A stretch of 64,000 nt of DNA from a virus. Shown piece after piece: positions 8,373-60,426 of this stretch. The DNA is taken from the IMG/VR virus record IMGVR_UViG_3300046051_000062. One strand, written 5' to 3'. Every line of letters starts with the position of its first letter. Position 1 is the first letter of the stretch. Made by a program: the position numbers and the translations under genes. The notes under the pieces are model-generated. The model saw nothing but the letters and a program-made list of their open reading frames with translations. It was not told the DNA's origin and did not search any database.

Positions 8373-11300
8373 CTACCCAGGCGGTGGTCCCCCCTTCTTG
8401 AACCACTCAAACGTGGACTGGTGGGTCCAGCACCGCTCCTCCTCGCGCGAGGTGTTATAAGCACAATTCGGCAACGCATCAACCGCAACGGTGAACGTAT
8501 TAGATACCCCATACGCGGGATGCAATGGTTCGTCGTCACCAGGGCTGAGGTCCACGTCTCCGCCGGGGGTAAAGGCGTCGCTCGGGGAGTAGAGGTCTGC
8601 GCCGTAGGGGCCAGCACCCGGCGTCCGTTCGAGTATGCCCCGCTCCTCTGCCTTCTTCAACGTCCGCCACGCGGCCTGCTTCGAGCAGCCGCAGGCGTCG
8701 GCAACCTCCTTAGCGGTCGCGCCCGCGCCGCTGTCGCGGACGTACTCCAGGCGTTCGCGCTGGTCGTCGTTAGTCGTCCACGTCACGCCGGGGGCCTGGG
8801 CGTCGATGAAGCCAGTCGGCGCGGCCTCCGTGACGACGAACACCGTTGCATGGTCTTCGGGGTCCTCTGCGTTCCTCGCCCACCGCCCTACACTCTGCGC
8901 GACGTGGTGTTCGCGTACTCCCTGGAGGACCGCATCCGCCATGTCGGCGTCCGGCCCCTCGAAAGTACGGCCATGCTCGCGGACCTCGCCGTCCCCGTAG
9001 CACGTCTCGCACATCTCCTCGCCGTCCTCGTCCACATATCCTGCCCCCTCGCAGATGGGGCACACGTCAACAACGGGTTCGGCATCGAGGTCCAGCCGCG
9101 CCAGCAGGTCCATCACCACGTTATCGCCTGGATCTATGGACCCGACCACCAGTCCGATGTTCTCGCCCTCGAAGTCGTTGCGGCTTTCCTCGTTACCGAA
9201 GTGCATCATCTCGGGGTCCTCGCAGCCGGCGTCCTCCATCGCGTTCCGAATCGTCGGGCGGGCGGCCATGCTGGTGATGGCCGTCTTGAAGTCCTCGCCG
9301 TACTGCTCTCGCAGGTGTTCGATGATGGCCTCGAACTTCTCTCCTTGGCCTTCGTCCAGCCATTGTCCGCTTGTCACGGGCTGCACTCCGTGCCCGACCT
9401 GTACCGTGAACAACCCCCGTTCGTATCGCCGGTAGAGGGTTCGCTCCTCGGTGTCGAGGGTGTAGTCGGTGGACATATCCGGGTGGATGTTCGCCTGCCA
9501 GGTCGGGTCCTCCGGTTGTGGGTGGGCGTCCAGGCCGACAACGGAGGAGGCCAGCGAGAAGTCCGGCATCGACTGAACGTCCACGATTTCCCACTGGTCG
9601 TTCAGTACCACGTCCACGAACACCCGGTTCCACCCGGACTCGTCGTGGGCGCTGTCATCGAACCGTGGTGGGTGGTACGGAATCCGGGCTGCCTTCCGTC
9701 CGCCGGCTCGTTCGTCGGCCTTCCAGATTGCCCGGGTGAACGCTGGGGCGAGTGCGTGGGCGTCGCGGTTCCCGCGGTACCACGATAGCGACGGCTTCGC
9801 GGCCCGGGTCTGAATCTCCCCGTCGCCGTCGCACCGGGGACAGGTGTCGCTGCTGGCCGCCCCGCCGTGTTGGTCGTAGTCCGTAATCTGCTGGTACTCC
9901 GACCCGCCCCGCGTTTCCTTGCCGTCGCCTCCACAGCGTGGGCAGTCGGTCGTCTCGGGGTACGGCGACAGCGCCGCGTCCATCTGCTCCTCGAAGCATT
10001 TCTTGTATTCGCCGAGCATGGTCCCGCCGACCACCCGGTTGCCCGCGACCTCCGGCTCACAGTTGTGTTGGGCGGCGAACACCAGGTCTGAGTAGTTGTC
10101 AACCGGGGCGTCACACCACTCCAGGTAGGCGTTCACCGACCTGCGGACCCGCTCTGCGTCGATGTCGATGCCGAACGCTGGTTTCTCGTCCAAAAAGATG
10201 TGGGTGTGCATCCGCAGTGACGGGACGTGGGTGAACTGGTGGGTGCAGTGAATCACGTCGTGTGTCGGCTCCCCTGCGTCGTTCCGGGGAATGCCCTCGA
10301 ACTGGCCTTTCGCCGGGCACTCGGACTCTCCCTCCTCGCAGGGCATGGTCCCGGCGACCTCTGCTTTCGCCCACTTGTGGACGACCGAGAACGGGATGCC
10401 CTGCTTGTCACAGCGGTGGTCTATCCACTCGGAGATGGGCACGCCGTCGATGGTCAGCGACCGCGAGTTCGCGCTACTTCCCGGGTCGAAGTCGCCGGCT
10501 GCGACGGGGCACAACTCCTTGCGCCCTTTGAGCGTGTAGGCGTCCACCCCTTCGTCGTCGCTCATTTGGCGTGCCTGGTCCCTGGCTTCGTGAGTGCGGT
10601 GTGCGTGGATAACCGGCTTGCCGTCAGTGGGCGAGTCTGCCCGGTCCCATGGCTCGGTGGCGACGGTGTGGGTCTTGCCCGCGCCGGTCGGTGACGCTTT
10701 CACGACCGTCTCGCCCTCCGCCACGGAATGCATGATGGTGTCGCAGAGACGGTCGCGTACCTCGTCCACATCCGGCCACTCGATGCCGCGCTGCTCTGCG
10801 TACCGGACCCGCTCCTCGTGGGAGAGCCGGTCGAGGCGTTCCAGCGGGAGGGTGGCAACTGGCTCGGCGTCCCCGTCACCGTCGTCGTTTTCCTCCGGCT
10901 CCATCTGCTCGCCGCTGGCTGCCTTGTCGATGGTGTGGGCCAGGTAGTCATCCCGGTCGGTTACCTTTTGCCTGGTCCTGTAATCCCGTATGATGCGGGC
11001 GATGTCCCGCTCCGAGTACCTCCAGAAGTGGAGTTTGGATGCGGCGGCGAAGTCGGCCTCGCTGGCCGAGGGATACGAGTAGCCGCCAGGCACGAGCGAC
11101 GAAAGGAGGGCGTCGAGTTTGTCGTCCCTGTTTCGGATGGAGTCCAGCGACATCCCGAGGTCGTTCTGGTACCGGCCACCGCCGCCTGCTTCACTTGAAC
11201 TGGTGGAGGGGTCCGGGAGGTCGTCATAGTCCTCCATATCCTTCTTGACTGAGGGTTGGAACTCCTCGGGTATCTCGTCTCCCGCCAGGGTCGCCCACTC

Positions 11301-12005
11301 GCTGTCATCGGTGATGTGGTAAACGCCTCCCGACGGGTGAATCGACCCGGGCGTGATGACATACCAGTTCTCGGCCTTCACCTCGCCTGTGCCGCCGTAT
11401 TCCCCTTTCGCAAACGCCCGTTCGACGTTCCCGTCGTTGTGGTAGTAGAGGTGTTCCCCGTCGCCGGACCCGGACATACCTTTGCCCGTGGATGGGAACT
11501 CCCGGTAGGGGAACTCGTCGGGTTCGTCCACGTCTACCACGGCGAATCCCTCGGTGCCGTGGTCGTCTTTTCCCGCGTAGATGCAGAACCCCGGATAGTC
11601 CTCCTCGAAGATGAGCCGCACGGCTTCGTCAGGGGTGACAAGGAACGACCGTCCCTTCGGCGAGTCGAGACTGGCCTCCCCCGAGATGGCCGGCTCCTTC
11701 GAATCCTCCTTAAGCGGCATGAGCATCGGCCGGCTGCCGAACTCCCGCTTGAACGCCTTGAGGAACTCGATAAGGTGCTGTGCCCGCTCTTGCGGGGTCA
11801 CGTCATCGTAGTCGATGGGGTTGTTGTGGTCTTCGTCTGGGTTCAGGTATCCGTCCTCTGCACCGATGTCCTCATCGGGCTCGTCGCTCTCCGGGGTGCA
11901 ATCGGGGCAGATGAAGGCGTTGCCGAACCGTTCGAGGCTCTCCGTGGAACCACATTTAAAGCACGATGCGCCAGCGTCGTTGTCGTCGGGTGTTTCGTCG
12001 GACAT
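8373..12005 (-). CDS. Replication protein: bifunctional primase-polymerase fused to an SF2-like helicase and C-terminal wHTH
   Basis: Prim-pol motifs (AVVDVD, GEHLYY, GEVKAENWYVITPGSIHPSGGVY); helical SEADF domain; Walker A SPTGAGKT; Walker B IFLDEKP; four CxxCxGxG motifs; C-terminal TAKEVADACGCSKQAAWRTL HTH. Confidence 0.85.
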   Translation of the reverse strand: MSDETPDDNDAGASCFKCGSTESLERFGNAFICPDCTPESDEPDEDIGAEDGYLNPDEDHNNPIDYDDVTPQERAQHLIEFLKAFKREFGSRPMLMPLKEDSKEPAISGEASLDSPKGRSFLVTPDEAVRLIFEEDYPGFCIYAGKDDHGTEGFAVVDVDEPDEFPYREFPSTGKGMSGSGDGEHLYYHNDGNVERAFAKGEYGGTGEVKAENWYVITPGSIHPSGGVYHITDDSEWATLAGDEIPEEFQPSVKKDMEDYDDLPDPSTSSSEAGGGGRYQNDLGMSLDSIRNRDDKLDALLSSLVPGGYSYPSASEADFAAASKLHFWRYSERDIARIIRDYRTRQKVTDRDDYLAHTIDKAASGEQMEPEENDDGDGDAEPVATLPLERLDRLSHEERVRYAEQRGIEWPDVDEVRDRLCDTIMHSVAEGETVVKASPTGAGKTHTVATEPWDRADSPTDGKPVIHAHRTHEARDQARQMSDDEGVDAYTLKGRKELCPVAAGDFDPGSSANSRSLTIDGVPISEWIDHRCDKQGIPFSVVHKWAKAEVAGTMPCEEGESECPAKGQFEGIPRNDAGEPTHDVIHCTHQFTHVPSLRMHTHIFLDEKPAFGIDIDAERVRRSVNAYLEWCDAPVDNYSDLVFAAQHNCEPEVAGNRVVGGTMLGEYKKCFEEQMDAALSPYPETTDCPRCGGDGKETRGGSEYQQITDYDQHGGAASSDTCPRCDGDGEIQTRAAKPSLSWYRGNRDAHALAPAFTRAIWKADERAGGRKAARIPYHPPRFDDSAHDESGWNRVFVDVVLNDQWEIVDVQSMPDFSLASSVVGLDAHPQPEDPTWQANIHPDMSTDYTLDTEERTLYRRYERGLFTVQVGHGVQPVTSGQWLDEGQGEKFEAIIEHLREQYGEDFKTAITSMAARPTIRNAMEDAGCEDPEMMHFGNEESRNDFEGENIGLVVGSIDPGDNVVMDLLARLDLDAEPVVDVCPICEGAGYVDEDGEEMCETCYGDGEVREHGRTFEGPDADMADAVLQGVREHHVAQSVGRWARNAEDPEDHATVFVVTEAAPTGFIDAQAPGVTWTTNDDQRERLEYVRDSGAGATAKEVADACGCSKQAAWRTLKKAEERGILERTPGAGPYGADLYSPSDAFTPGGDVDLSPGDDEPLHPAYGVSNTFTVAVDALPNCAYNTSREEERCWTHQSTFEWFKKGGPPPG

Positions 12006-12183
12006 GGGTGTCCCTAAAGGTTTAAGTAGACCGCGACACAAGGAGAGTATGTGTGCGTCTTCCTTCTGGCGCGGTCCGCTTTCGAGGAGATACTTCTTCC
12101 CCTTCCGTGTTAAAGCTTGGGTCCCTCTCGTGAGCGCCGGTACCTTGTAGTCAGTCCGGTGTTAATACTACTACGTAGCCACG

Positions 12184-12663
12184 ATGATGACCGCCCGCGA
12201 CCTACTCGACGGCGACGCTCTCCTCCCTGGGGATGTCGTCGTGGACAAGACGACGCACCGCCCCATGCAAGTGACCGGCTACGAACAGCGCAACGCCGAA
12301 CAAGTACCCGAGGTGTGGGAGAGCAACGTCAACCAGCACGGCCTGTCGCTCGACCCCGAGGCAAGCGTCATCGAACTTATCGACCTCCCGACGGGCAACC
12401 ACTACTACGTCCCCGAGGAAATCGAGCGGTTCCCGACCGACCGCCTCATGCGCATCATCACCGAACCCGCGACCGATGAACGCCGCGTCCAAGAGAAGGT
12501 CGTCCGGTCCGTGATGGCCCACCTGCTATCCGACCTCCGCACCCACGACGACGGGATAGTAGCCGCCTCCGCCCTCCTCGACGTGTGCCAGACCCATTGG
12601 GGCGACGAATACGTCTCGGAAGTAGCCGAGTTCGCCGAACTCGTCGCCGACATCGGACACTAA
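12184..12663 (+). CDS. Hypothetical protein
   Basis: Acidic 159-aa ORF divergent from the replication gene. Confidence 0.65.
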   Translation: MMTARDLLDGDALLPGDVVVDKTTHRPMQVTGYEQRNAEQVPEVWESNVNQHGLSLDPEASVIELIDLPTGNHYYVPEEIERFPTDRLMRIITEPATDERRVQEKVVRSVMAHLLSDLRTHDDGIVAASALLDVCQTHWGDEYVSEVAEFAELVADIGH

Positions 12664-15935: not shown

Positions 15936-16111
15936 AAGCCGAAGGCGACTGCCCCGACTGCGGTAAGGCCGTCGGGGTACATATCGCGGGGGACCTCGCC
16001 TCGATGTTCAAAAGCAGCATCGAGCAGTTCATGGGCCGGGACGGCAACGCAATGCGTTGCTCGAACTGCGGCAAGTACGTCGAGCCCGCAGGCGTGTCCA
16101 TCGAGGAGTAA
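15932..16111 (+). CDS. Small zinc-finger protein
   Basis: CPDCG...CSNCG; ATGA overlap with the upstream gene. Confidence 0.65.
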   Translation: MKAEGDCPDCGKAVGVHIAGDLASMFKSSIEQFMGRDGNAMRCSNCGKYVEPAGVSIEE

Positions 16112-16119
16112 CAGTACGC

Positions 16120-17031
16120 ATGTCGAACGGGACCGAGTTCGAGGCGTTCGAGGCGTTCGAGGCGTACTACGACGAGGCCAAGGGGAACATCGACCAGCGA
16201 ATCACTGAAATCCTCGCCGACAACGAGGAGTTCACGATCAAGCGCCGGATGCTCGAACACTCCACGCGGGGGGGCAAGCGGCTTCGCCCGGTGTTGACCA
16301 TGCTGGTCAGTGACGTGTACGGTTCGCCCTACGACAAGGCCATCAACCACGCCGCCATCGTGGAACTCATCCATAACGCCTCGCTGGTCGCCGATGACAG
16401 AGCCGATAACGACGCGACCCGGCGTGGGGCGCCGGCCCTCTGGAAAATCATCGAGAAACTGCCTCTCGGTCGGAGGGGGCACAAGTTCATCACGGGCGCG
16501 ACCGTGATGGCCGAGAACGGCCTGGTGGCGCTCGCGTTCCAACTCGCAGCGGAACACGATGTCGCCCAGGCGGTCGCCCACGGGATGCGCAAACTCGTGG
16601 ACGGCTTTTTCCTCGAAGGAGCCAACGTGTTCGAGGGAGTCGTCGGCGGCGGGTACGACAAGTACGTCGAAATCAACAAGGCCAAGACCGGCGGACTGTT
16701 CGCCCTCGCAGCCTGGATGCCCGCCACCTACGTCGATGCCCCCGAGGAACAGGTAGACGCCGCCCGCAAGTACGGCGAGACACTCGGTATCCTCTACCAA
16801 ATCGCAGACGACATCGCGGACGACGACCTGCCGTCGTACATCCCCGACCCGGCGGAGGAACTGGAGAAGTGGTACGACAAGGCACAGGAGCAGGTAGAGC
16901 GGATGCCGCCCGACGAAAAGGAGGACCTGCTCCGGGCTGCCCCCGCGTGGGTAGTTTACAGGATGTTCGAGCAAGAGGAAATGTTGGGGGAAATCGAGCC
17001 GTCGTTTCTCCCACCAGCGAAGGAGGTGTAG
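16120..17031 (+). CDS. Polyprenyl diphosphate synthase (trans-IPPS family)
   Basis: GGKRLRP, ELIHNASLVADDRAD..RRG (first Asp-rich motif), KTGGLF, YQIADDIAD (second Asp-rich motif). Confidence 0.92.
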   Translation: MSNGTEFEAFEAFEAYYDEAKGNIDQRITEILADNEEFTIKRRMLEHSTRGGKRLRPVLTMLVSDVYGSPYDKAINHAAIVELIHNASLVADDRADNDATRRGAPALWKIIEKLPLGRRGHKFITGATVMAENGLVALAFQLAAEHDVAQAVAHGMRKLVDGFFLEGANVFEGVVGGGYDKYVEINKAKTGGLFALAAWMPATYVDAPEEQVDAARKYGETLGILYQIADDIADDDLPSYIPDPAEELEKWYDKAQEQVERMPPDEKEDLLRAAPAWVVYRMFEQEEMLGEIEPSFLPPAKEV

Positions 17032-17262: not shown

Positions 17263-18048
17263 ATGTTTAGCCGAGAGCGCCGGCAAATCCGCCACGACTT
17301 CGGGGTGACCCCCGAACTCGTCCGCCGATACTCCAAACACACTCCCAGGGCGTCCGCGCTCCGGGCTGCCCGGCAGGTCACGGGCGTCACGACCTACCTG
17401 TCGTGGATGGCGACCGGTGAGGCTCGCTGCTACGAGGGGTCGGTGTTCGGCACCGTCATCGTCTGCATGGACGAGGTGACCGACGAACTCGGCGAACGGC
17501 TCGGCGACGGCGTGACCGAGCGGGCGCTCGACGGCGACGCGGACCACGAGTGCCTGGAGGTCCTCTCGGTGGCTTCGGACATCGCTCGCGGCCCCCGGTT
17601 CGATGAGGCAGTCCGGTACATCGGCAACTGGCAGGACGCAAGCATGAAACAAACGGAGGACCTGCACTCCGCCGAAGTCCACGACATCACCTTCCACAAG
17701 GGCGGGTCCTCTGCACTGGCGAACCTTCACATGGTCAAGGACTCCCCGTCGAACAGGGAGGACAGGTTCGCCATGCAGTTCGGGTACCTCATGCAACTGC
17801 TGGACGACTACCGCGACCAGCCCGAGGACGACGAGGAGGGGCTCTCGACCCTGTTCACGATAGGGGACATGGACGCAGCCGACCTCCGCGAAACGATAGC
17901 CGACGTGGAGTCACAGGCCATCGACCTCTACGGCGACACCCCCGCAGTGAGACGGTTCTTCCGTGTCTGCCGGATGCACTACCGGCTCGGGTGGATGGCG
18001 AACAACACCCCCATCGACCCCTCCTCTGTGGTCCCCTGGTACCTTTGA
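17263..18048 (+). CDS. Class I isoprenoid/terpene synthase-like protein
   Basis: Asp-rich motifs MDEVTD and QLLDDYRDQPED in an all-helical protein, adjacent to the IPPS. Confidence 0.65.
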   Translation: MFSRERRQIRHDFGVTPELVRRYSKHTPRASALRAARQVTGVTTYLSWMATGEARCYEGSVFGTVIVCMDEVTDELGERLGDGVTERALDGDADHECLEVLSVASDIARGPRFDEAVRYIGNWQDASMKQTEDLHSAEVHDITFHKGGSSALANLHMVKDSPSNREDRFAMQFGYLMQLLDDYRDQPEDDEEGLSTLFTIGDMDAADLRETIADVESQAIDLYGDTPAVRRFFRVCRMHYRLGWMANNTPIDPSSVVPWYL

Positions 18049-18626: not shown

Positions 18627-19412
18627 ATGGAGCTTGAACGCATGGCAACTGCATCAGACCCCAGCGCACAGGAGAGCAGCACCGCGTTCTCCGTGCGGAA
18701 GTCGCTCGTAACGCCCTACGTCCCGTACACCATCTACGTCATCGCCTACGCCATCTTCGGCGTGGCGCTCGGCGCAGCGGTCGGGTCGTTCAACATCGTG
18801 TACGCGGCTGCGGTCGCCGCCGCCATCTGGTTCGGCCTCGAAGGACTGCACGCTATCGACCTCGCGGACGGCGGTGTCGCCATCCGGCTAAACAACGGCA
18901 TCGCCAACGTCCTCGGGTACGCACAGGTCGCTGTCGGGTCCGCAATCGGCGTATGGCTCGCCTACGAGACGACGTGGCAGTTCCTCGGACTCGTCGCGCT
19001 CGGCGCACTGCTCGGACTGGCGTACAACGAGGAGTGGTTGAACGGCTGGCTGCACGACCGCGACAAGATAACCGGCCTCGCCAACTTCGGCGTCTCGTGG
19101 GGCATGATCCCGTTCTACGCAGGCGTCGCCGTGATGTACCCCGGTCTGCTGACGTGGAGCGGAACCGTCGGCCCCGTACAGACGCTCGGGATACTGGTCA
19201 TCGGCCTTGGCATCTGCATCGACGCCATTCGGCTCAACTATCTCGAAGGTCATGGTGCGATTCCGCGCTACGAGGACGTGGGGATCGAACACTCTCGGGA
19301 CCACAAGAGTACCGCCGAGGAGGCCCGCGCCGCCTGCCACCAGGCCAACGTCATCAACATCCCTGCCTGGGTCTGCATCGGCGTCGGAACGCTCCTCCTG
19401 TTCGCACTATGA
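18627..19412 (+). CDS. Multi-pass membrane protein, UbiA-like prenyltransferase superfamily
   Basis: About 8 TM helices; loop motifs GLHAIDL, LAYNEE..NG.LHD and WGMIP; located in the isoprenoid cluster. Confidence 0.5.
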   Translation: MELERMATASDPSAQESSTAFSVRKSLVTPYVPYTIYVIAYAIFGVALGAAVGSFNIVYAAAVAAAIWFGLEGLHAIDLADGGVAIRLNNGIANVLGYAQVAVGSAIGVWLAYETTWQFLGLVALGALLGLAYNEEWLNGWLHDRDKITGLANFGVSWGMIPFYAGVAVMYPGLLTWSGTVGPVQTLGILVIGLGICIDAIRLNYLEGHGAIPRYEDVGIEHSRDHKSTAEEARAACHQANVINIPAWVCIGVGTLLLFAL

Positions 19413-26480: not shown

Positions 26481-27278
26481 CTACTCCACGTCATCGTCGT
26501 CGGTCATCTCGACCTCGACATCGCGCATCCCCCGGATGCCGGTGCGGGGGTCGTCGGTGTCGTCCGGTCCCTCTGGGCCCTCGGCGCTGTCGAGGCCGCC
26601 ATACGCCTTGCTGATGTCTTCCGACCAGTGCCGGGCCAGCCGAACCTCGTGGGGGTATTCGCCCCGGAACTGCTCGGCGTGGACGTAGACGTGCTTGTGG
26701 AGAAGGTCGGTTCCCCGGTCGTCTTCCAGGCGCTCCACGAACGTGTAGTCCTCGTCGTCGTGGACCTCGACGTACTCCGAGAGGGCGTCGCGGGCGTCCT
26801 TGATGATGGGACGTACCTGTCGGCGCTCGAAGTCCTCCTGCATGAGCGCGGGCCAGCGGACGGCGATGCCGTCCACGGCAGCCACGGCGTTCTTGTCGAG
26901 GCGGTGGCTCTGCTGGGTGTCATAAATGATGTCGCTGTTCTTGTGTCTGGAGATGGTGACGAGTTTGTCAATCTCCAGGTTCTCCACGTCCATCGACCGC
27001 CGGGCGTGCAGGAGGTGGTGGGCCTCGTGAATCAGGACGATGGAGTCCTCGGGCCACGCCTCCATCCTGGTCGTGGGGTCCAGCACCTCGACCCACGCTG
27101 GCAGGAGGTCCCGCTTGGCTTCGGGAAACCCCATGATGTAGGCGTCACGTCCGTTCGTCCCGAACACTTCCAGCAGCCGATGGCCGAGCGCCGTCTTGCC
27201 CTCCCCCCGTGCGCCGAGCCCGAGTAATACAAACGGCTCATCCAGTATCACCTCCCAGGAGATGTCAGTTGCTTCCAT
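26481..27278 (-). CDS. P-loop ATPase, Zot/FtsK-HerA-like; candidate packaging ATPase
   Basis: Walker A GARGEGKT, Walker B-like IVLIHEAH, SRHK arginine motif, DTQ sensor. Confidence 0.7.
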   Translation of the reverse strand: MEATDISWEVILDEPFVLLGLGARGEGKTALGHRLLEVFGTNGRDAYIMGFPEAKRDLLPAWVEVLDPTTRMEAWPEDSIVLIHEAHHLLHARRSMDVENLEIDKLVTISRHKNSDIIYDTQQSHRLDKNAVAAVDGIAVRWPALMQEDFERRQVRPIIKDARDALSEYVEVHDDEDYTFVERLEDDRGTDLLHKHVYVHAEQFRGEYPHEVRLARHWSEDISKAYGGLDSAEGPEGPDDTDDPRTGIRGMRDVEVEMTDDDDVE

Positions 27279-27678
27279 CGTCTCCGTGGGGGGTGGGGTG
27301 CGTGCCGGTGTCGCTGCGCCCGGGGACGGTCGTGAAGTGGTTGAGGACACACGTCGGGGGGTTGGCCTCGCCCTGGCGGCGGGCGTACAGCGACTGGTAT
27401 TTCTCCACCAGCGCGCTGGTGCCCTTGTCATCGTGGTCGCCGAGGCGGCGCAGTATCTCCTCGTCGGGATTGTAGCCCTGTTCGAGCATCATACGCCGGG
27501 CGTTGATGCAGATGTCCGCCAGTTCCTCGATGCACTCCTCGCCGTCGTACTCGTCGTCCTCCATGTCCCGGAGGTCACAGCCGATGACGAACGCGACGTA
27601 GGGAAAGCCGCCCTGCTCGAAGTCATCGTGACCGCCCCACACATCCTCGATGGTGCGGTCGAGAATCGACCGAAGCAT
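27265..27678 (-). CDS. MazG-like all-alpha NTP pyrophosphohydrolase
   Basis: IEELADICINA motif. Confidence 0.45.
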   Translation of the reverse strand: MLRSILDRTIEDVWGGHDDFEQGGFPYVAFVIGCDLRDMEDDEYDGEECIEELADICINARRMMLEQGYNPDEEILRRLGDHDDKGTSALVEKYQSLYARRQGEANPPTCVLNHFTTVPGRSDTGTHPTPHGDDGSN

Positions 27679-28351: not shown

Positions 28352-29845
28352 CTACAATTCCACCCCCATCTCTCGAAGTTCCTCCTCCCACTCCTGGTAG
28401 CGTTCCCGCTTTTCCCGAACGTTCTCGAAGGCCGTGGCGATAGCCGCCTCGCCACCGCCCTCCTCCGCGATGGTCGAGTCCTCCTCGGGCTGTTGTGCCG
28501 CGAGGTAGTTTTCGACCATGCGGTCTTCCATCTCGGCGGGGTTCATCAGCAGGTCGTTGGCGACCCTGGCGTGGTCCTCGTAGGACCCGCCGGCCGACCG
28601 GGAGCCACGGTCGTGGTGGCTCACGGCGTAGGTCGCCGCGCTGTGAATCTCCCACCAGTTCGGGACGTACGCGTCGCCGGCCTGGCTGCGCAGGCGCTTG
28701 CCGGCGTGTCGCGCCAGGTAGTCCGGCAGCCCGAGGTAGGAGTACAGCGCCACCCAGGGGGCGGCGTCCTCGTCCTCGAAGCGCGACCCGAGGTCGTCGG
28801 GGAGGTCGGCGAAGTCCAGGTGGTCGTTCGCCGCCGACTGGATGACGCGAGCCAGTTGGTCGCGCTTTTCCTCCAGGCGGTCCAGCAGGTCCGCCATGAA
28901 CTCGCGCCAGTCCACCCTTCCCTCCACGTCTCCGGCGTACTTCACGACCTCGCGGTCGGTCATGCGGTGGATGCGGTTGTCACACCGCCAGTCGAACCCC
29001 TGGCCGCAGGCCCGAAACGCCCAGTCGGAGTAGAACGACCATTGGATTTCCAGGCCGACGACGACGGGTTCGCGGTCCTCGGCGAACACCGGGCTTTCGA
29101 CGTGCTGGCCGTCGATGAACAGGTCCAGCGTCCCCCGGCCGCCGCCGCGGTCCAGCCGGACTTCGCCGAACACCTTGTCGGCCCATCCACGGTCCTGCAT
29201 CTCGTGGACGAGTTCTTCGAGGGGCTGCTGTGGGTTGATGATGGTGTGGTCGTCGCCCGCGATCTGGTAGAGCGCGTCGTCGGCGATACCGACCTCCTCC
29301 AGTTGCTCGCGCTGGTTGGGGGTGAGATGCTCCTCCTCGAACTCGGCGAAGCTCATCTCCTCCAGCACCTCCGCGATGTCGCTCTGGTCGTAGCCGAACA
29401 GCGACGCGATGGCGTCCTCGTAGGAGGTGTACCCGCCGAGAGCGTCCTCGGCGGCCTGCGGGTTGATGACGGCGTTGTGCTTGGCCGTCTCCATCACGTC
29501 GCCCGTCCGGGGGTGAATCCAGGCAGGCTGGGCGTGGTTCGCCCGGGGCAGTTCCGGGATGAGCGTGTGCAGGCCGCGCTCGGGGAGGACCGAAGGGTCG
29601 AGGTCGCGCTCGATCCCCACGTCGTCCTCGAAGACGTGTTCGACCTGGTTCTGTGCCCAAAACTGCATGCTGGAATGCTGGTTCCAGACGTTCTCGGGCA
29701 GCGTCGCCGCGTCCACGTCCTCATCGTAGGTCGTCAGCCCCGCATACGGGTACACGCCGCCGCCTTCGATTGGTTCTGTGCCGATGCGTTCGGGGTCGTT
29801 GGAGCCGCTGTCGGCTCCGTCTGGATTGTGCTCCTCGGTAGACAT
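28352..29845 (-). CDS. DUF932-like mobile-element protein
   Basis: 497-aa ORF with HTIINPQQ..., VVGLEIQWSFY..., DWRCDN and KYAG pattern, and C-terminal WWEIHSAATYAVSH. Confidence 0.5.
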   Translation of the reverse strand: MSTEEHNPDGADSGSNDPERIGTEPIEGGGVYPYAGLTTYDEDVDAATLPENVWNQHSSMQFWAQNQVEHVFEDDVGIERDLDPSVLPERGLHTLIPELPRANHAQPAWIHPRTGDVMETAKHNAVINPQAAEDALGGYTSYEDAIASLFGYDQSDIAEVLEEMSFAEFEEEHLTPNQREQLEEVGIADDALYQIAGDDHTIINPQQPLEELVHEMQDRGWADKVFGEVRLDRGGGRGTLDLFIDGQHVESPVFAEDREPVVVGLEIQWSFYSDWAFRACGQGFDWRCDNRIHRMTDREVVKYAGDVEGRVDWREFMADLLDRLEEKRDQLARVIQSAANDHLDFADLPDDLGSRFEDEDAAPWVALYSYLGLPDYLARHAGKRLRSQAGDAYVPNWWEIHSAATYAVSHHDRGSRSAGGSYEDHARVANDLLMNPAEMEDRMVENYLAAQQPEEDSTIAEEGGGEAAIATAFENVREKRERYQEWEEELREMGVEL

Positions 29846-29952
29846 CGTTTCGCCCCGGTTTTCCTGCGAGGGTGACCGGAAACCTGATGCCGTCCTGCGG
29901 AGTCGAACCGCAGCGAGTCCACGACGGCGGGTGTCCGTTGGCGGTGGGGGTG

Positions 29953-30201
29953 TCACCGCTCGGGGTCGGTGAACCGTACGAGGCCCGACGCGAACAGCAC
30001 CGGGAAGATGAGGGGGGCGATAGGCCACAGGATCGAGGTGGCGGCGTAGAACACCGTCATCTGGAGCGTCTTGGTGCTCGCCTCCCTGTGTGGGTCGGTG
30101 ACGTAGACGAGCGTGTAGCTGATCGTGTACGACCAGCACGCGACGACCCCACCGAGGTAGGCAACTGCGATGGTGGTGGGGGAGACTCCCAGGAGGGGCA
30201 T
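29953..30201 (-). CDS. Small two-TM membrane protein
   Basis: Two hydrophobic helices, ILWPI motif. Confidence 0.65.
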   Translation of the reverse strand: MPLLGVSPTTIAVAYLGGVVACWSYTISYTLVYVTDPHREASTKTLQMTVFYAATSILWPIAPLIFPVLFASGLVRFTDPER

Positions 30202-30522
30202 CTACTGTCCCTCCGCCTGGAGGTCGGGGTCCGGGGTGTCGAACGCCTCGGAACATAACGCCCGCATTGCGCCCGCCGGGATGGTTCCTGTCCCATGCCG
30301 CCCTCGTGATAGGACCGTCTGCCCCCACGGTTGGTGTTCGAGTTCGGTGAAGAACCACTTGACGACCCCGTGGTCGGGAGCGTACAGTTCGAGCCGGTAG
30401 ACTGTGGTGGTGACGTTTGTCTCGACCCTGTAGAGCGATAAACGATCATGGGATGCGAGACGGGTCCCGTTGTCGTTGTCGGGGGCGTCATCTCGCCGGT
30501 CCGTTGGGTTCTCGTCAGCCAT
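30202..30522 (-). CDS. Hypothetical protein
   Basis: Coupled ORF starting MADENPTD. Confidence 0.6.
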   Translation of the reverse strand: MADENPTDRRDDAPDNDNGTRLASHDRLSLYRVETNVTTTVYRLELYAPDHGVVKWFFTELEHQPWGQTVLSRGRHGTGTIPAGAMRALCSEAFDTPDPDLQAEGQ

Positions 30523-56501: not shown

Positions 56502-57422
56502 ATGAGCGTTCAAAACCAGCACGTCGAGGCGTTCCGCAACCGGGTGGTCGGCCGCCGCATCAAGGAGAACACGTACAACGTGTACGAGCCGTGGGTGAAG
56601 CGGTACGAGATGTGGCGCTCCGGGGGCGAGCCGACCCTGGGTGGACTCATCGACTTCGACTCCATGCTGGCCGACGCCGAACGGTCGGAGTACCCCTGGG
56701 AGTACACGACCGGGCGCAAGCAGCCCGACGGGTACGCCTACCGGACCAGGGTCGTCGCCCTTTCGGCCGCGAAGCTGTGGTCCCGAGTCCACTACGACGC
56801 CCGCATCGAGGAGGAGGTCCAACACATCGCCGAAGGCGAACCCGCCCCCTTCGACCCACCATACCTCTCCCGGGACGACGTGGCCCGGGTGCTGGCATCC
56901 GCCGAGGAGAACTGTAACAACCCCGACTGCGAGGCCATGCTCCATCTGACCTACGACGCCCTGCTGCGCTGTGCAGAGGTCGTCACCGTCGAGCGAGAGG
57001 ACATCGACCTCGACAGGGGCACCCTCGACGTGCGTCCCGTGAAGGGCGGCCTCAACATGACGGTGGGCCTCTCCCGGGAGACTGTCGAAGTCCTCCGGTC
57101 GCACCTGCGCGACGACGCGGGACGCGGCAAGGTGTTCACGAACACCTACGGGAACGGATGGAAGCCGACCTCCTGGTCCACGCACTTTCGAGACTACCAC
57201 CACGAGGTCGGTGCCCACTCGTTCGGTCGCCACTCGCCGATTATGCATCGACTGTCGGCTCCGGCGGAGTTCGAGACGATGGACCAGGACGGCGACCCCT
57301 TCGGTCAGACCTACAGGAGGTCCCGTCACCATCACCCCTCGATGACCACCAGGTATGCGCGGCTGTTGGACACCGAGGTCCCCGACTGGGCCGGCGACGA
57401 CACCTCGGGGACAGTCGCCTGA
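56502..57422 (+). CDS. Tyrosine recombinase/integrase
   Basis: Catalytic set: LLR(CAE), VKGG, HSFGR(H), RH..., TTRY. Confidence 0.9.
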   Translation: MSVQNQHVEAFRNRVVGRRIKENTYNVYEPWVKRYEMWRSGGEPTLGGLIDFDSMLADAERSEYPWEYTTGRKQPDGYAYRTRVVALSAAKLWSRVHYDARIEEEVQHIAEGEPAPFDPPYLSRDDVARVLASAEENCNNPDCEAMLHLTYDALLRCAEVVTVEREDIDLDRGTLDVRPVKGGLNMTVGLSRETVEVLRSHLRDDAGRGKVFTNTYGNGWKPTSWSTHFRDYHHEVGAHSFGRHSPIMHRLSAPAEFETMDQDGDPFGQTYRRSRHHHPSMTTRYARLLDTEVPDWAGDDTSGTVA

Positions 57423-57511: not shown

Positions 57512-58021
57512 TTAGTAGAGGCCTTTGGGCAGCCATTCGCTGATTGTCATTACCCGGTTTTCATCGGAGTAGACCTTGTAGGTCCGCTCCAGATAGAGCG
57601 CGGACGCCCCGTCGATGAACGTGGGCAGGTCGGTTGCGTCGTGCCAGGTGGCGTCCATTCCGACTATCTCTCGTCGCGTCTCCGCGTACTCCTCGCGCAG
57701 CAGGTCGCCGATGCCGATGTCGCCGGTGACCAGTCGGTCCTCCATCTCGTTGTCGAGTGGGTAGGTGTTCACCTTCGAGGCGGCCCACGCCAGCACGGAG
57801 TCGTCGCGGTCCCGGCGCAGCGCCACCTCTCGCTTGAGGGTCGAGCCGTGGACCTCCCGGTTGAGGATGTCCACTCGGACCTCCCCACGAGTCAGTGCCT
57901 CCAGCATGTGCGTGACGGTGCCGTCGGTCGCCAACAGTAGTCGCTCGACCGGCGAGAGGCTCACCCCGTCGTGGGCGGCCACGGTGGCGAGCATCGAACG
58001 GATGTCGTCGCCTGCTCCCAT
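57512..58021 (-). CDS. Chorismate pyruvate-lyase-like (UbiC/DUF98 family)
   Basis: ERLLLATDGTVTHMLEAL, REVAL, DIGIGDLL, TRREI, RTYKV...ISEWLP. Confidence 0.8.
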   Translation of the reverse strand: MGAGDDIRSMLATVAAHDGVSLSPVERLLLATDGTVTHMLEALTRGEVRVDILNREVHGSTLKREVALRRDRDDSVLAWAASKVNTYPLDNEMEDRLVTGDIGIGDLLREEYAETRREIVGMDATWHDATDLPTFIDGASALYLERTYKVYSDENRVMTISEWLPKGLY

Positions 58022-58023
58022 CC

Positions 58024-58935
58024 TCAGACCCCCGAGACGACCATCAGCACCGCGAGGACGACGGCGTGGATGCTCGTCCAGTGCATGTTCCGCAGGCGGA
58101 CCCGACTGGCGTTGTCCTCGTCGTAGGGGTCCAATGCTTCCAGGCCAAGCATCATCCAGGCCCACACGATTGGCGTGATGGCGAACGCGGGCGACACCCC
58201 CAGGGCGAGATACAGCGCGGGAGCGAGCCCGAGCGCCAGGTACGCCGAGGACAACAACGCGGCGTTCTCCCGCCCGACGAACACCACGGACGTGACTTTT
58301 CCGACCCGTTTGTCGGGGTGGTAGTCGGGGACCCGCGAGACGATGAACCAGGAGATGCAGAACATCGCGTGGACCCATCCAGCACCGACCGCAACCATCG
58401 ACCACCCTCCCGCAAGTACCATGTCGGTGCCGACGACGACGCCGACCAGTGCCGGCAGGACGACCACGATCTCGTTGAACGGACGGTACCCGAGTTTCAG
58501 CGGGGGCACGGAGTAGGCGACGGGCGACCAGATGGCGACCGCGAGCAACACCACCATGGGGGTGCCGAACTGGACGGCGAAATGCGCTCCGATGGCGACG
58601 ACCCCGGCGAGGCCGACCAGCGCGGCGGCGATGGTCCCCAGGACCGTCATCTTCCCCTCGGGGATGACCCGACTGCCGCCGGTCCCCTTGCCGATGCTCT
58701 CCTTGTCCGTTCCGGTGAGCCAGTCGTAGGCGTCGTTCAGCCCGTGGCTGACGATGCCCTGCGCGAGCGCCACCAGCGCCAACGCCAGGCCGCCGTTCAC
58801 CAGGCTCACGTCATACCCGGTGCGGCCCACGGCGATGGCGGCCCCCAGGACGAACGCGGCGACACCCCAGGAGACGACCGGCTTCGGTCGAAACAACTGC
58901 GCGACTCCTCGAACCTGCCGTACTGCGGACTGCAT
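58024..58935 (-). CDS. UbiA-superfamily prenyltransferase, MenA/UBIAD1-like
   Basis: NDAYDWLTGTD, GGSRVI, YSVPPLKLGYR, PDYHPDKRVGKVT; about 9 TM helices. Confidence 0.88.
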   Translation of the reverse strand: MQSAVRQVRGVAQLFRPKPVVSWGVAAFVLGAAIAVGRTGYDVSLVNGGLALALVALAQGIVSHGLNDAYDWLTGTDKESIGKGTGGSRVIPEGKMTVLGTIAAALVGLAGVVAIGAHFAVQFGTPMVVLLAVAIWSPVAYSVPPLKLGYRPFNEIVVVLPALVGVVVGTDMVLAGGWSMVAVGAGWVHAMFCISWFIVSRVPDYHPDKRVGKVTSVVFVGRENAALLSSAYLALGLAPALYLALGVSPAFAITPIVWAWMMLGLEALDPYDEDNASRVRLRNMHWTSIHAVVLAVLMVVSGV

Positions 58936-58981
58936 GTCAGCAACATCGAGTGCCCCCGATGTAAACCTTCACCCCTCGGGA

Positions 58982-59866
58982 CTACCCGTTCAGAAGGTGA
59001 CCCGGCACCCTGGCACGGTCCGCCACGATGCTGGTCCCATCGGTGGCGTACTCGAAGGTTCCTTCTGGGACCTCGTGGAAGTGTTCCATCATCTTCGAGT
59101 TCAGGACGACCAGCCAGAAGTCCGGCAGGTGGCGGTTGGCCCGGCCCTGGATGAGTTCGTGCAGCCGGCGGGCGGCCTCGGACTCGTCCATCGCGGAGGC
59201 GTCGATGCCGTCCCCGCGCCGGGTCCCGGAGTGGTAGCCCGGCTGGTCGGCGAGCATCCGCGTAACGCTGCGACGGCTCTGGAGGTACATGCCCACGGAC
59301 TCCAGCGAACGGTCGACGCTGATGGAGTCCTGGGCGGCCAGTAGTTCTCGCTCGTCGGTGTGGCGCATGGAGAGGACCTCCATCTGGTTTTTGCCCCAAT
59401 CGGTGACCGTCCAGCCCGTCTCCGTCTCCGTGACGAGGCCGATGAGGCCCTCCTCCTCGGTGTGTATCTCGCCACCGACGTTGCCGCCTTTCACCCAGGA
59501 GAGGGCGCCCTCGTAGCCGTCGAAAAAGCCGTAGTTGTACGACACCTGCACGGGCGTGTGCCGCATATCGCGCTGGTTCAGGAACAACACCACCGGCCCG
59601 AAGTTGATGGCGGTCCCGAGCGTCCGGGTGAGCCCACCCGTGACGCCCTTCTCCTCCACAACGTAGCCTTTGTCCTCGATGCCCTCCGGGACCCACCACG
59701 GGAGGTCCTCGACGGGCGTCCCCCGAGGCACGGTCGCGTGCGGCGTCTCGGTGTCGAGACGGCCACGGAAGATGGACGCGGTGTGGCCCTCTATCTCGCC
59801 GGTAGAGAACTCCTGGCCCTGTAACTTCTTGAAACTCGACCCCCGGTAGACGTAGTTACTTACCAT
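58982..59866 (-). CDS. Hypothetical protein, possible ADP-ribosyltransferase fold
   Basis: VYRGSS, GLTRTLGTAINF and TDERE resemble the R-S-E motifs. Confidence 0.4.
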   Translation of the reverse strand: MVSNYVYRGSSFKKLQGQEFSTGEIEGHTASIFRGRLDTETPHATVPRGTPVEDLPWWVPEGIEDKGYVVEEKGVTGGLTRTLGTAINFGPVVLFLNQRDMRHTPVQVSYNYGFFDGYEGALSWVKGGNVGGEIHTEEEGLIGLVTETETGWTVTDWGKNQMEVLSMRHTDERELLAAQDSISVDRSLESVGMYLQSRRSVTRMLADQPGYHSGTRRGDGIDASAMDESEAARRLHELIQGRANRHLPDFWLVVLNSKMMEHFHEVPEGTFEYATDGTSIVADRARVPGHLLNG

Positions 59867-60426
59867 GATAGTGTGTCCGAGGGGTGGTCTTCCCACTCGA
59901 TGGTGCCTATCGGTGCGATGCTCTCGATGCGCCAATCGAACCAGAGCGTCGATTCGGCGTCCCACCCGTACAGGCTGTCGGCCTGCCCACCACGCAGGTG
60001 GGTATCTCGCTGGCCGTCCTCGGTAAGCCACACCCCGTGATAGTCGTGCGACAGCGCCTCGAAGTCCATTCTCGGGTCGCCACTCGGGACCTCCTGGGCG
60101 TCGGTGTACGCCTCAACGACGGCTTCGAGGTCTGCCACGGAGTCGATGACAACGAGGTGGGACCCGGGCGTGGCCTCGATGAGCCACCCCTCCTCATCGA
60201 GCGTGTAGAACGCCTCACCCGCCGACCAGCGGACCCAATCTGACAGTTGCGGCTCACCGAGCCACGTCGAGGTCCACAAGCCCCCCCGCGGCTTGTGGGT
60301 GGTGTCGTTCGCTACGGGGTCGAGGTCGGCGTACTGTGGGCGTTCGGGGCCGATGTAGAGTTGGGTGTCGTACTCCGGGCCGTCGCCCCCGACGACCGTC
60401 GTGGGGATGTCAGCCCGACCAGTCAT
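59860..60426 (-). CDS. Phage-type hypothetical protein
   Basis: KPRGGLWTS...DFEAL...YHGVWLT...LYGWDAES pattern. Confidence 0.6.
   Translation of the reverse strand: MTGRADIPTTVVGGDGPEYDTQLYIGPERPQYADLDPVANDTTHKPRGGLWTSTWLGEPQLSDWVRWSAGEAFYTLDEEGWLIEATPGSHLVVIDSVADLEAVVEAYTDAQEVPSGDPRMDFEALSHDYHGVWLTEDGQRDTHLRGGQADSLYGWDAESTLWFDWRIESIAPIGTIEWEDHPSDTLSW

Follow-up and report, generated by a model that had tools for sequence, protein, structure and literature searches.

A lyase-like gene and a UbiA-superfamily prenyltransferase gene form a putative ubiCA-like module in a haloarchaeal mobile element

Two adjacent genes in a viral metagenome record raise the question whether a mobile element of haloarchaea might carry its own route to a prenylated aromatic compound. 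They are located in IMG/VR virus record IMGVR_UViG_3300046051_000062, of which a stretch of 64,000 nt, here called the window, was analysed. The first-pass annotation had read them as a chorismate lyase and a UbiA/MenA-like prenyltransferase separated by 2 nt, and had suggested that, together with a long-chain-type prenyl synthase at 16.1 kb, they could make a prenylated hydroxybenzoate or an unusual quinone. The features concerned are the following.

58024..58935, minus strand: UbiA-superfamily membrane prenyltransferase, 303 aa (assigned by PF01040, motifs, tree and predicted fold)
57512..58021, minus strand: Rv2949c/DUF98/AF1396-type chorismate pyruvate-lyase-fold protein, 169 aa (assigned by PF01947, profile match to 2nwi and predicted fold)
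58960..58965, minus strand: TATA-like hexamer TTTACA (a weak call, made by eye from the sequence)
16057..17031, plus strand: divergent trans-polyprenyl diphosphate synthase (PF00348, 121.9 bits)

The coordinates and the spacer proved exact, and the two genes are coupled. The prenyltransferase ORF runs on the minus strand from an ATG at 58935 to a TGA stop at 58026-58024, and the lyase-like ORF follows on the same strand after two nucleotides (GG), from its ATG at 58021 to its stop at 57514-57512; in coding-strand order, the prenyltransferase comes first and the lyase second. Upstream of the pair, after a gap of 46 nt, comes an unrelated gene (58982-60031), which has no match in Pfam, NCBIfam or PHROG. 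The hexamer TTTACA is located inside this gap, 24 nt 5' of the prenyltransferase ATG, and is a possible promoter of a leaderless bicistronic transcript, although the call is weak. On the 3' side lies a convergent tyrosine recombinase gene, whose end is at 57422. The ORF upstream of the prenyltransferase was considered as a conserved partner and rejected, as unrelated ORFs occupy this position in the window and at four further loci (L001, L003, L004 and L005).

The prenyltransferase ORF has a GC3 of 0.89, as a genuine gene of an element with 65% GC should. Approximately 50 homologues of each protein (47-73% identity) start and stop at matching positions in the alignment, and thereby support the two start codons. 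By these measures, both ORFs are far beyond chance ORFs. Both genes look intact.

The GC content of the window is 64-69% throughout, gene-like ORFs were chosen by third-position GC, and a search of the window for tRNA genes gave none. Its proteins include a PrimPol-type replication protein of 1222 aa, a ParA/Mrp-type NTPase, an SMC-like ATPase and a subtilase, and there is a long array of small ORFs. The clearest PHROG virus-family matches found in the window are those of a 668-aa protein (28352-30358, minus strand; phrog_13083, function unassigned, 172.8 bits) and of a 316-aa protein (26481-27431, minus strand), which weakly matches Zot-like ATPases.

The pair is carried by a mobile element of haloarchaea, either a virus or a plasmid. 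A Pfam scan of 30 window proteins found no UbiD/UbiX decarboxylase, ring hydroxylase or methyltransferase among them. The polyprenyl synthase reached no curated chain-length model of NCBIfam (best 106 bits vs a 450-bit cut-off), and carries small residues before its first Asp-rich motif DDxxD, namely Ala at -5 and Ser at -4. The synthase might provide the prenyl donor. Because it lies about 40 kb from the pair on the opposite strand and matches no chain-length model, the link between the two is speculative, and the earlier suggestion of a long-chain prenyl synthase as part of the module is unsupported. Beside the synthase we observe two further proteins of 261 aa each (17263-18048 and 18627-19412, both plus strand) with no Pfam match. 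The latter, a multi-helix membrane protein, is a doubtful candidate for UbiA kinship, as its branch in the UbiA tree is very long (3.77).

For the prenyltransferase, the family assignment was borne out. It matches Pfam PF01040 (UbiA) with 56.7 bits at a cut-off of 34.2, covering residues 28-287. The Asp-rich motifs N67-D68-x-x-D71...G75-x-D77 and D204-x-x-x-D208 are both present, and both are invariant in an alignment of 20 family members; in the UbiA superfamily, the NDxxD and DxxxD motifs bind Mg2+ and diphosphate. The same alignment exhibits an invariant GTGGSRVIP stretch, which follows the first motif and precedes the next helix. Aligned pairwise with the one MenA-like protein compared, this region shows up as a short insertion. 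An AlphaFold model built from 20 homologues (pLDDT 90.3, pTM 0.90) is an all-helical membrane bundle with 13 DSSP helices, and the insert is its sole low-confidence part. A Foldseek search with this model returned AfUbiA (4tq3), the DGGGP synthases 7bpu and 6m31, UBIAD1 (8djk) and ApUbiA (4od5), with probability 1.00 and TM-scores of 0.62-0.72 for all five structures.

Within the superfamily, the nearest curated NCBIfam models are all MenA models and none is a 4-hydroxybenzoate (4-HB) transferase, in agreement with the first reading as UbiA/MenA-like. The best of them, NF004751 (MenA), scores 49.6 bits vs a cut-off of 264, and relatives of the protein reach 70-71 bits with MenA models. The window prenyltransferase had no match to the 4-HB transferase models TIGR01474 and NF009526, and hhalign of its family profile against the single E. 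coli UbiA sequence was not significant. We computed a quick IQ-TREE phylogeny of 56 UbiA-superfamily sequences. Besides the family and its next-best database matches, these were UbiA and MenA of E. coli and every UbiA paralogue, with its NCBIfam label, of three haloarchaeal genomes. The family is recovered as monophyletic (SH-aLRT 100), and its stem is long, with 1.7 substitutions per site. It is placed within a MenA-like superclade with weak support (SH-aLRT 81), outside the clade of E. coli and haloarchaeal true MenA; E. coli UbiA, DGGGPS, heme O synthase and the PRK12875 group all branch elsewhere. E. coli UbiA itself falls outside the MenA-like superclade. Phylogenetically, the family is thus a long-stemmed clade of its own beside true MenA and far from E. 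coli UbiA, and we regard it as a new MenA-related UbiA subfamily, which the GTGGSRVIP insert distinguishes. The absent model matches and the absent clustering with UbiA lower the case for a UbiA orthologue, but not for a possible use of 4-HB.

The lyase-like protein also fits its family. It matches Pfam PF01947, the Rv2949c-like chorismate pyruvate-lyases, with 47 bits at a cut-off of 22, which is in good agreement with the earlier assignment as a chorismate lyase. Across a diverse set of 139 representatives from the wider family, eight residues (D33, G34, R64, G105, R117, R146, Y148 and E162) are each 94-100% conserved, with R64 at 100% and E162 at 99%, and all of them are found in the window protein; the Pfam score and these residues together place it in PF01947. 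Its only NCBIfam match is the cyanobacterial chorismate lyase model NF037993 (E 7e-9), and since it scores 35.8 bits there vs a cut-off of 175, it is not an equivalog of this model. Among solved structures, the family profile matches a single one, AF1396 (2nwi), with E 1e-20. The predicted model of the protein (pLDDT 89.5) aligns to 2nwi with Z 18.5 and an rmsd of 2.1 A over 141 residues at 28% identity, to E. coli UbiC with bound product (1g81) with Z 11.0, and to UTRA effector domains with Z 12-13, as high as to UbiC.

UbiC holds 4-hydroxybenzoate via Arg76, Glu155 and the amides of Met34 and Leu114 (PMC7879144). When E. coli UbiC was added to the family alignment with MAFFT, Arg76 corresponded to R64, Met34 to V36 and Leu114 to I104, and Glu155 fell one column off the invariant E162. 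Neither hhalign of the family profile against the single E. coli UbiC sequence (not significant) nor hmmsearch of the lyase profile against it (no match) connected the two, so that the relation to UbiC rests on the fold and the MAFFT alignment. The first-pass annotation had also considered an inactive lyase. We reject this, as we see no sign of inactivation: the near-invariant family residues, assessed over the 139 representatives, are all kept, and the protein looks like an intact, putative chorismate-lyase-type enzyme.

Homologues of both proteins, about 50 each, come nearly all from hypersaline metagenomes. In the two homologue lists, 21 pairs share an identical size of their longest contig, e.g., 2192, 2698, 3380, 3471 and 4494 bp, which leaves scarcely room for more than the two genes. 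On contigs of at least 5 kb, 16 of the 21 prenyltransferase homologues have a lyase partner of the same contig size. The adjacency in relatives is judged from these identical contig sizes alone, and by this measure no fewer than 21 metagenome contigs share the pairing. With two co-directional genes 2 nt apart in the window and an inferred adjacency in relatives, the locus is a putative ubiCA-type operon.

In cellular genomes the situation is different. The prenyltransferase occurs in two and the lyase in seven of 401 genomes of Halobacteria, and no genome has both. No lyase is located within 10 kb of the prenyltransferase in the three cellular loci where the latter occurs, which indicates that the prenyltransferase can work without it, and none was found in the two metagenome-assembled genomes (MAGs) that carry the prenyltransferase. 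As the genes are rare and separate in cells, their coupling appears to be a trait of metagenomic elements and not of host chromosomes. A pattern scan for the prenyltransferase found nothing in IMG/VR, two short truncated contigs lacking the 3' end among JGI metagenome contigs, and two MAG loci in GTDB genomes. Searches of GenBank phages with both proteins (tblastn) and of phages with window positions 55-62 kb (blastn) gave no match, and a literature search returned nothing relevant on a prenyltransferase of haloarchaeal viruses or on DUF98.

Where relatives of either protein occur apart, their neighbours are of interest. For the prenyltransferase, a UbiE/MenG-like methyltransferase gene ends 5 nt before the family member in one MAG locus (L002). 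In another MAG, Halobacteriales archaeon QS_1_69_70, the family member lies in an island of 51-60% GC between flanks of 69% GC (locus L001, 5600-14300). This island also comprises a CMD-family gene, a BBE/BagK-like FAD oxidase, a 189-aa ORF without assignment, a CrtI/CrtD-family desaturase (545 bits) next to the UbiA-family member, and a family-3 glycosyltransferase. It has the look of a meroterpenoid-like cluster gained by horizontal transfer.

For the lyase, a cluster on the 427-kb plasmid of Halorussus caseinilyticus (NZ_CP119810.1, 293721-312173; locus positions 8950-12486) contains a lyase homologue followed by a class A FAD-dependent aromatic monooxygenase; it also has a convergently oriented, sequence-divergent MenA-like gene (252 bits at a cut-off of 264) and DoxX, and a PaaK-like ligase is encoded close by. 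We consider it a candidate non-canonical quinone or aromatic cluster. Five Natrialbaceae-type genomes (G223, G114, G140, G334 and G183; loci L015-L019) share a lyase neighbourhood of a MaoC dehydratase, a class I/II aminotransferase, the lyase, a PaaK-like AMP ligase and a divergent GNAT gene. In G223, a DGGGP synthase gene is located 5 kb from the lyase locus. In genome G035, a lyase homologue (locus L021, 8001-8534) lies 115 nt downstream of a co-directional FolC-FolP fusion gene, which hints that this lyase may supply p-aminobenzoate in that haloarchaeon.

Domain fusions complement this picture. An exhaustive fusion search found the lyase domain fused only to beta-ribofuranosylaminobenzene 5'-phosphate (beta-RFAP) synthase and to aryl-type AMP-forming ligases, two kinds of enzyme that act on benzoate-type acids; a word-indexed search of longer proteins, which is weak evidence, found no lyase fusion to any partner. 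In a metagenome representative of 415 aa (P0142), a DUF98/chorismate-lyase domain is joined to the N-terminal part of beta-RFAP synthase. This links the lyase fold to the aminobenzoate/hydroxybenzoate step of methanopterin synthesis, and a fusion of this type explains why stand-alone lyases carry beta-RFAP synthase names at JGI. The contexts point to a putative chorismate-derived benzoate-type acid, which may then be activated, ribosylated or prenylated.

What, then, might the pair do in the window? One answer holds that the prenyltransferase is a MenA variant that acts on DHNA of the host and boosts or alters menaquinone, e.g., in chain length, while the lyase has nothing to do with the acceptor. 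Its best NCBIfam matches, which are all MenA models, the MenA-type first motif (NDxxDxxxGxD) and the position of the family within a MenA-containing superclade (SH-aLRT 81) speak for such a role. They have to be set against scores of 49-71 bits at cut-offs of 102-264, a separate clade with a stem of 1.7 substitutions per site, and an invariant insert that is absent from the one MenA-like sequence compared. Furthermore, at least one genome with a family member, that of a Natronococcus, has its own bona fide chromosomal MenA (399.7 bits), which suggests an extra function for the gene, and a conserved coupling to a lyase that would drain chorismate, the precursor of MenA chemistry, is hard to explain. 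A plain MenA, the other outcome which the first-pass annotation had considered, is ruled out by the score of 49.6 vs 264 bits and the separate clade, together with the MenA already present in the Natronococcus genome; a MenA variant we judge to be distinctly unlikely. Still less probable, and in our opinion very unlikely, is a prenyltransferase that acts on a non-aromatic isoprenoid, in the manner of a lycopene elongase, or on a lipid, with the lyase pairing due to regulation or chance. The desaturase of the CrtI/CrtD family (545 bits) that adjoins the family member in QS_1_69_70 favours this reading, and recalls the haloarchaeal lyeJ-crtD arrangement. However, such a carotenoid-type neighbour is seen at one locus vs 21 contigs with a lyase, the QS_1_69_70 locus also has the BBE/BagK-like aromatic oxidase, and in the tree neither the PRK12875-type haloarchaeal prenyltransferase nor DGGGPS groups with the family.

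The lyase leaves room for a different product as well. It might make another aromatic acid, such as p-aminobenzoate from aminodeoxychorismate or 3-hydroxybenzoate, or act as a non-catalytic, UTRA-type partner, with a prenylated aminobenzoate or other compound, or ligand delivery or sensing, as the outcome. The cellular homologue directly after the FolC-FolP fusion gene, the fusion to beta-RFAP synthase, an enzyme that uses aminobenzoate, the UTRA effector domains with Z 12-13, as high as UbiC, and the counterpart of Glu155, which is one column out of register, can all be read in this way. On the other hand, the lyase has no DNA-binding domain, its Pfam and NCBIfam matches are catalytic lyase families, and the Arg and Glu with which UbiC binds the carboxylate and the 4-OH of 4-HB have near-invariant counterparts. 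We hold this reading to be unlikely, if a little less so than a MenA variant.

The explanation we prefer is a ubiCA-like module which, by analogy, would make a membrane-bound prenylated (hydroxy)benzoate in a haloarchaeal mobile element, and we rate its chances as about even. The two genes are probably a bicistronic module of a haloarchaeal virus or plasmid, analogous to bacterial ubiC-ubiA. The soluble enzyme of the UbiC/Rv2949c fold would remove pyruvate from host chorismate or a close derivative and yield 4-hydroxybenzoate or a similar para-substituted benzoate, and the membrane enzyme of the UbiA superfamily would put a polyprenyl chain on the ring, taken from a polyprenyl diphosphate made by the host or the element. 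The prenylated (hydroxy)benzoate may be the end product, or the entry to a quinone-like lipid other than menaquinone. In favour of this explanation are the spacing of 2 nt, the Asp-rich motifs and UbiA fold of the prenyltransferase, the lyase fold with its conserved R64 and E162, the 21 homologue pairs, the contexts and fusions described above, and the MenA that one genome has besides a family member. Against it count the MenA models as nearest curated matches of the prenyltransferase, the three cellular loci with no lyase within 10 kb, the UTRA domains that score as high as UbiC, and the absence of ring-tailoring genes among the 30 window proteins scanned. Of the interpretation given in the first-pass annotation, the family calls and the coupling stand, and neither a plain MenA nor an inactive lyase was found; the product is a proposal, and the link to the prenyl synthase, located 40 kb away on the opposite strand without a chain-length model match, is unsupported.

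A bolder version is a self-contained pathway of the virus or plasmid, which would start from chorismate of the host and end in a prenylated lipid of the benzoate or benzoquinone type, one that Halobacteria are not known to make, via the GTGGSRVIP subfamily of UbiA enzymes. We regard it as doubtful. Halobacteria are known only for menaquinones. If the route exists, the element would remodel redox or lipid chemistry, either in the host membrane or in an envelope or vesicle of its own, and this would be the first mobile-element-encoded module for a quinone head group and its prenylation in Archaea. A conserved mobile-element module which channels chorismate into a different prenylated aromatic would add an auxiliary metabolic function of a new type to those of archaeal viruses or plasmids. 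It would also provide a first function for a UbiA subfamily seen almost only in hypersaline metagenomes, and a first function for archaeal DUF98 proteins, of which a structure without function has been available since 2006. Both proteins are small and easily expressed, and the hypothesis is therefore directly testable.

Among known systems, the closest solved structure to the window lyase is AF1396 of Archaeoglobus fulgidus (2nwi, DUF98). As this is a structural-genomics protein without an assigned function, the likeness adds no functional proof. With haloarchaeal MenA (NF004751), its nearest curated family, the window prenyltransferase shares the superfamily, the MenA-type first motif and a similar length; unlike it, the window protein belongs to a separate clade and carries GTGGSRVIP, and a family member coexists with MenA in Natronococcus. 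The Halorussus caseinilyticus plasmid resembles the window in that a lyase homologue (43% identity) is located about 1.4 kb from a MenA-like gene on an extrachromosomal haloarchaeal replicon. Its prenyltransferase, however, is 24% identical to that of the window and far nearer to true MenA (252 bits), its genes converge and are uncoupled, and the cluster includes a ring hydroxylase.

In Synechocystis, Sll1797 (PlqC) was identified as the chorismate lyase and, together with Slr0926 (PlqA), performs the first steps of cyanobacterial plastoquinone synthesis, in which the lyase feeds a 4-HB prenyltransferase (PMC12998194). The window lyase and Sll1797 belong to the same Pfam family, although the match to NF037993 amounts to only 35.8 vs 175 bits. 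Unlike in Synechocystis, the window prenyltransferase is of another clade, and there is no PlqD/X decarboxylase.

The arrangement itself is best compared with ubiC-ubiA of E. coli (NC_000913.3, b4039-b4040), where a UbiC-fold lyase and a UbiA-superfamily prenyltransferase are likewise adjacent and co-directional, with a gap of 12 nt compared with 2 nt in the window. The order is reversed in the window, with the prenyltransferase first. The lyases belong to PF01947/DUF98 in the window and to PF04345 in E. coli, with no significant sequence match between them, and E. coli UbiA stands far off in the tree from the MenA-like prenyltransferase of the window. Also unlike E. coli, the carrier is an archaeal mobile element, and no ubi genes follow downstream. 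What the two systems would share is the logic of an aromatic head group derived from chorismate and then prenylated. This theme is known from bacteria; new are its haloarchaeal mobile carrier, the prenyltransferase subfamily and hosts that are known only for menaquinones.
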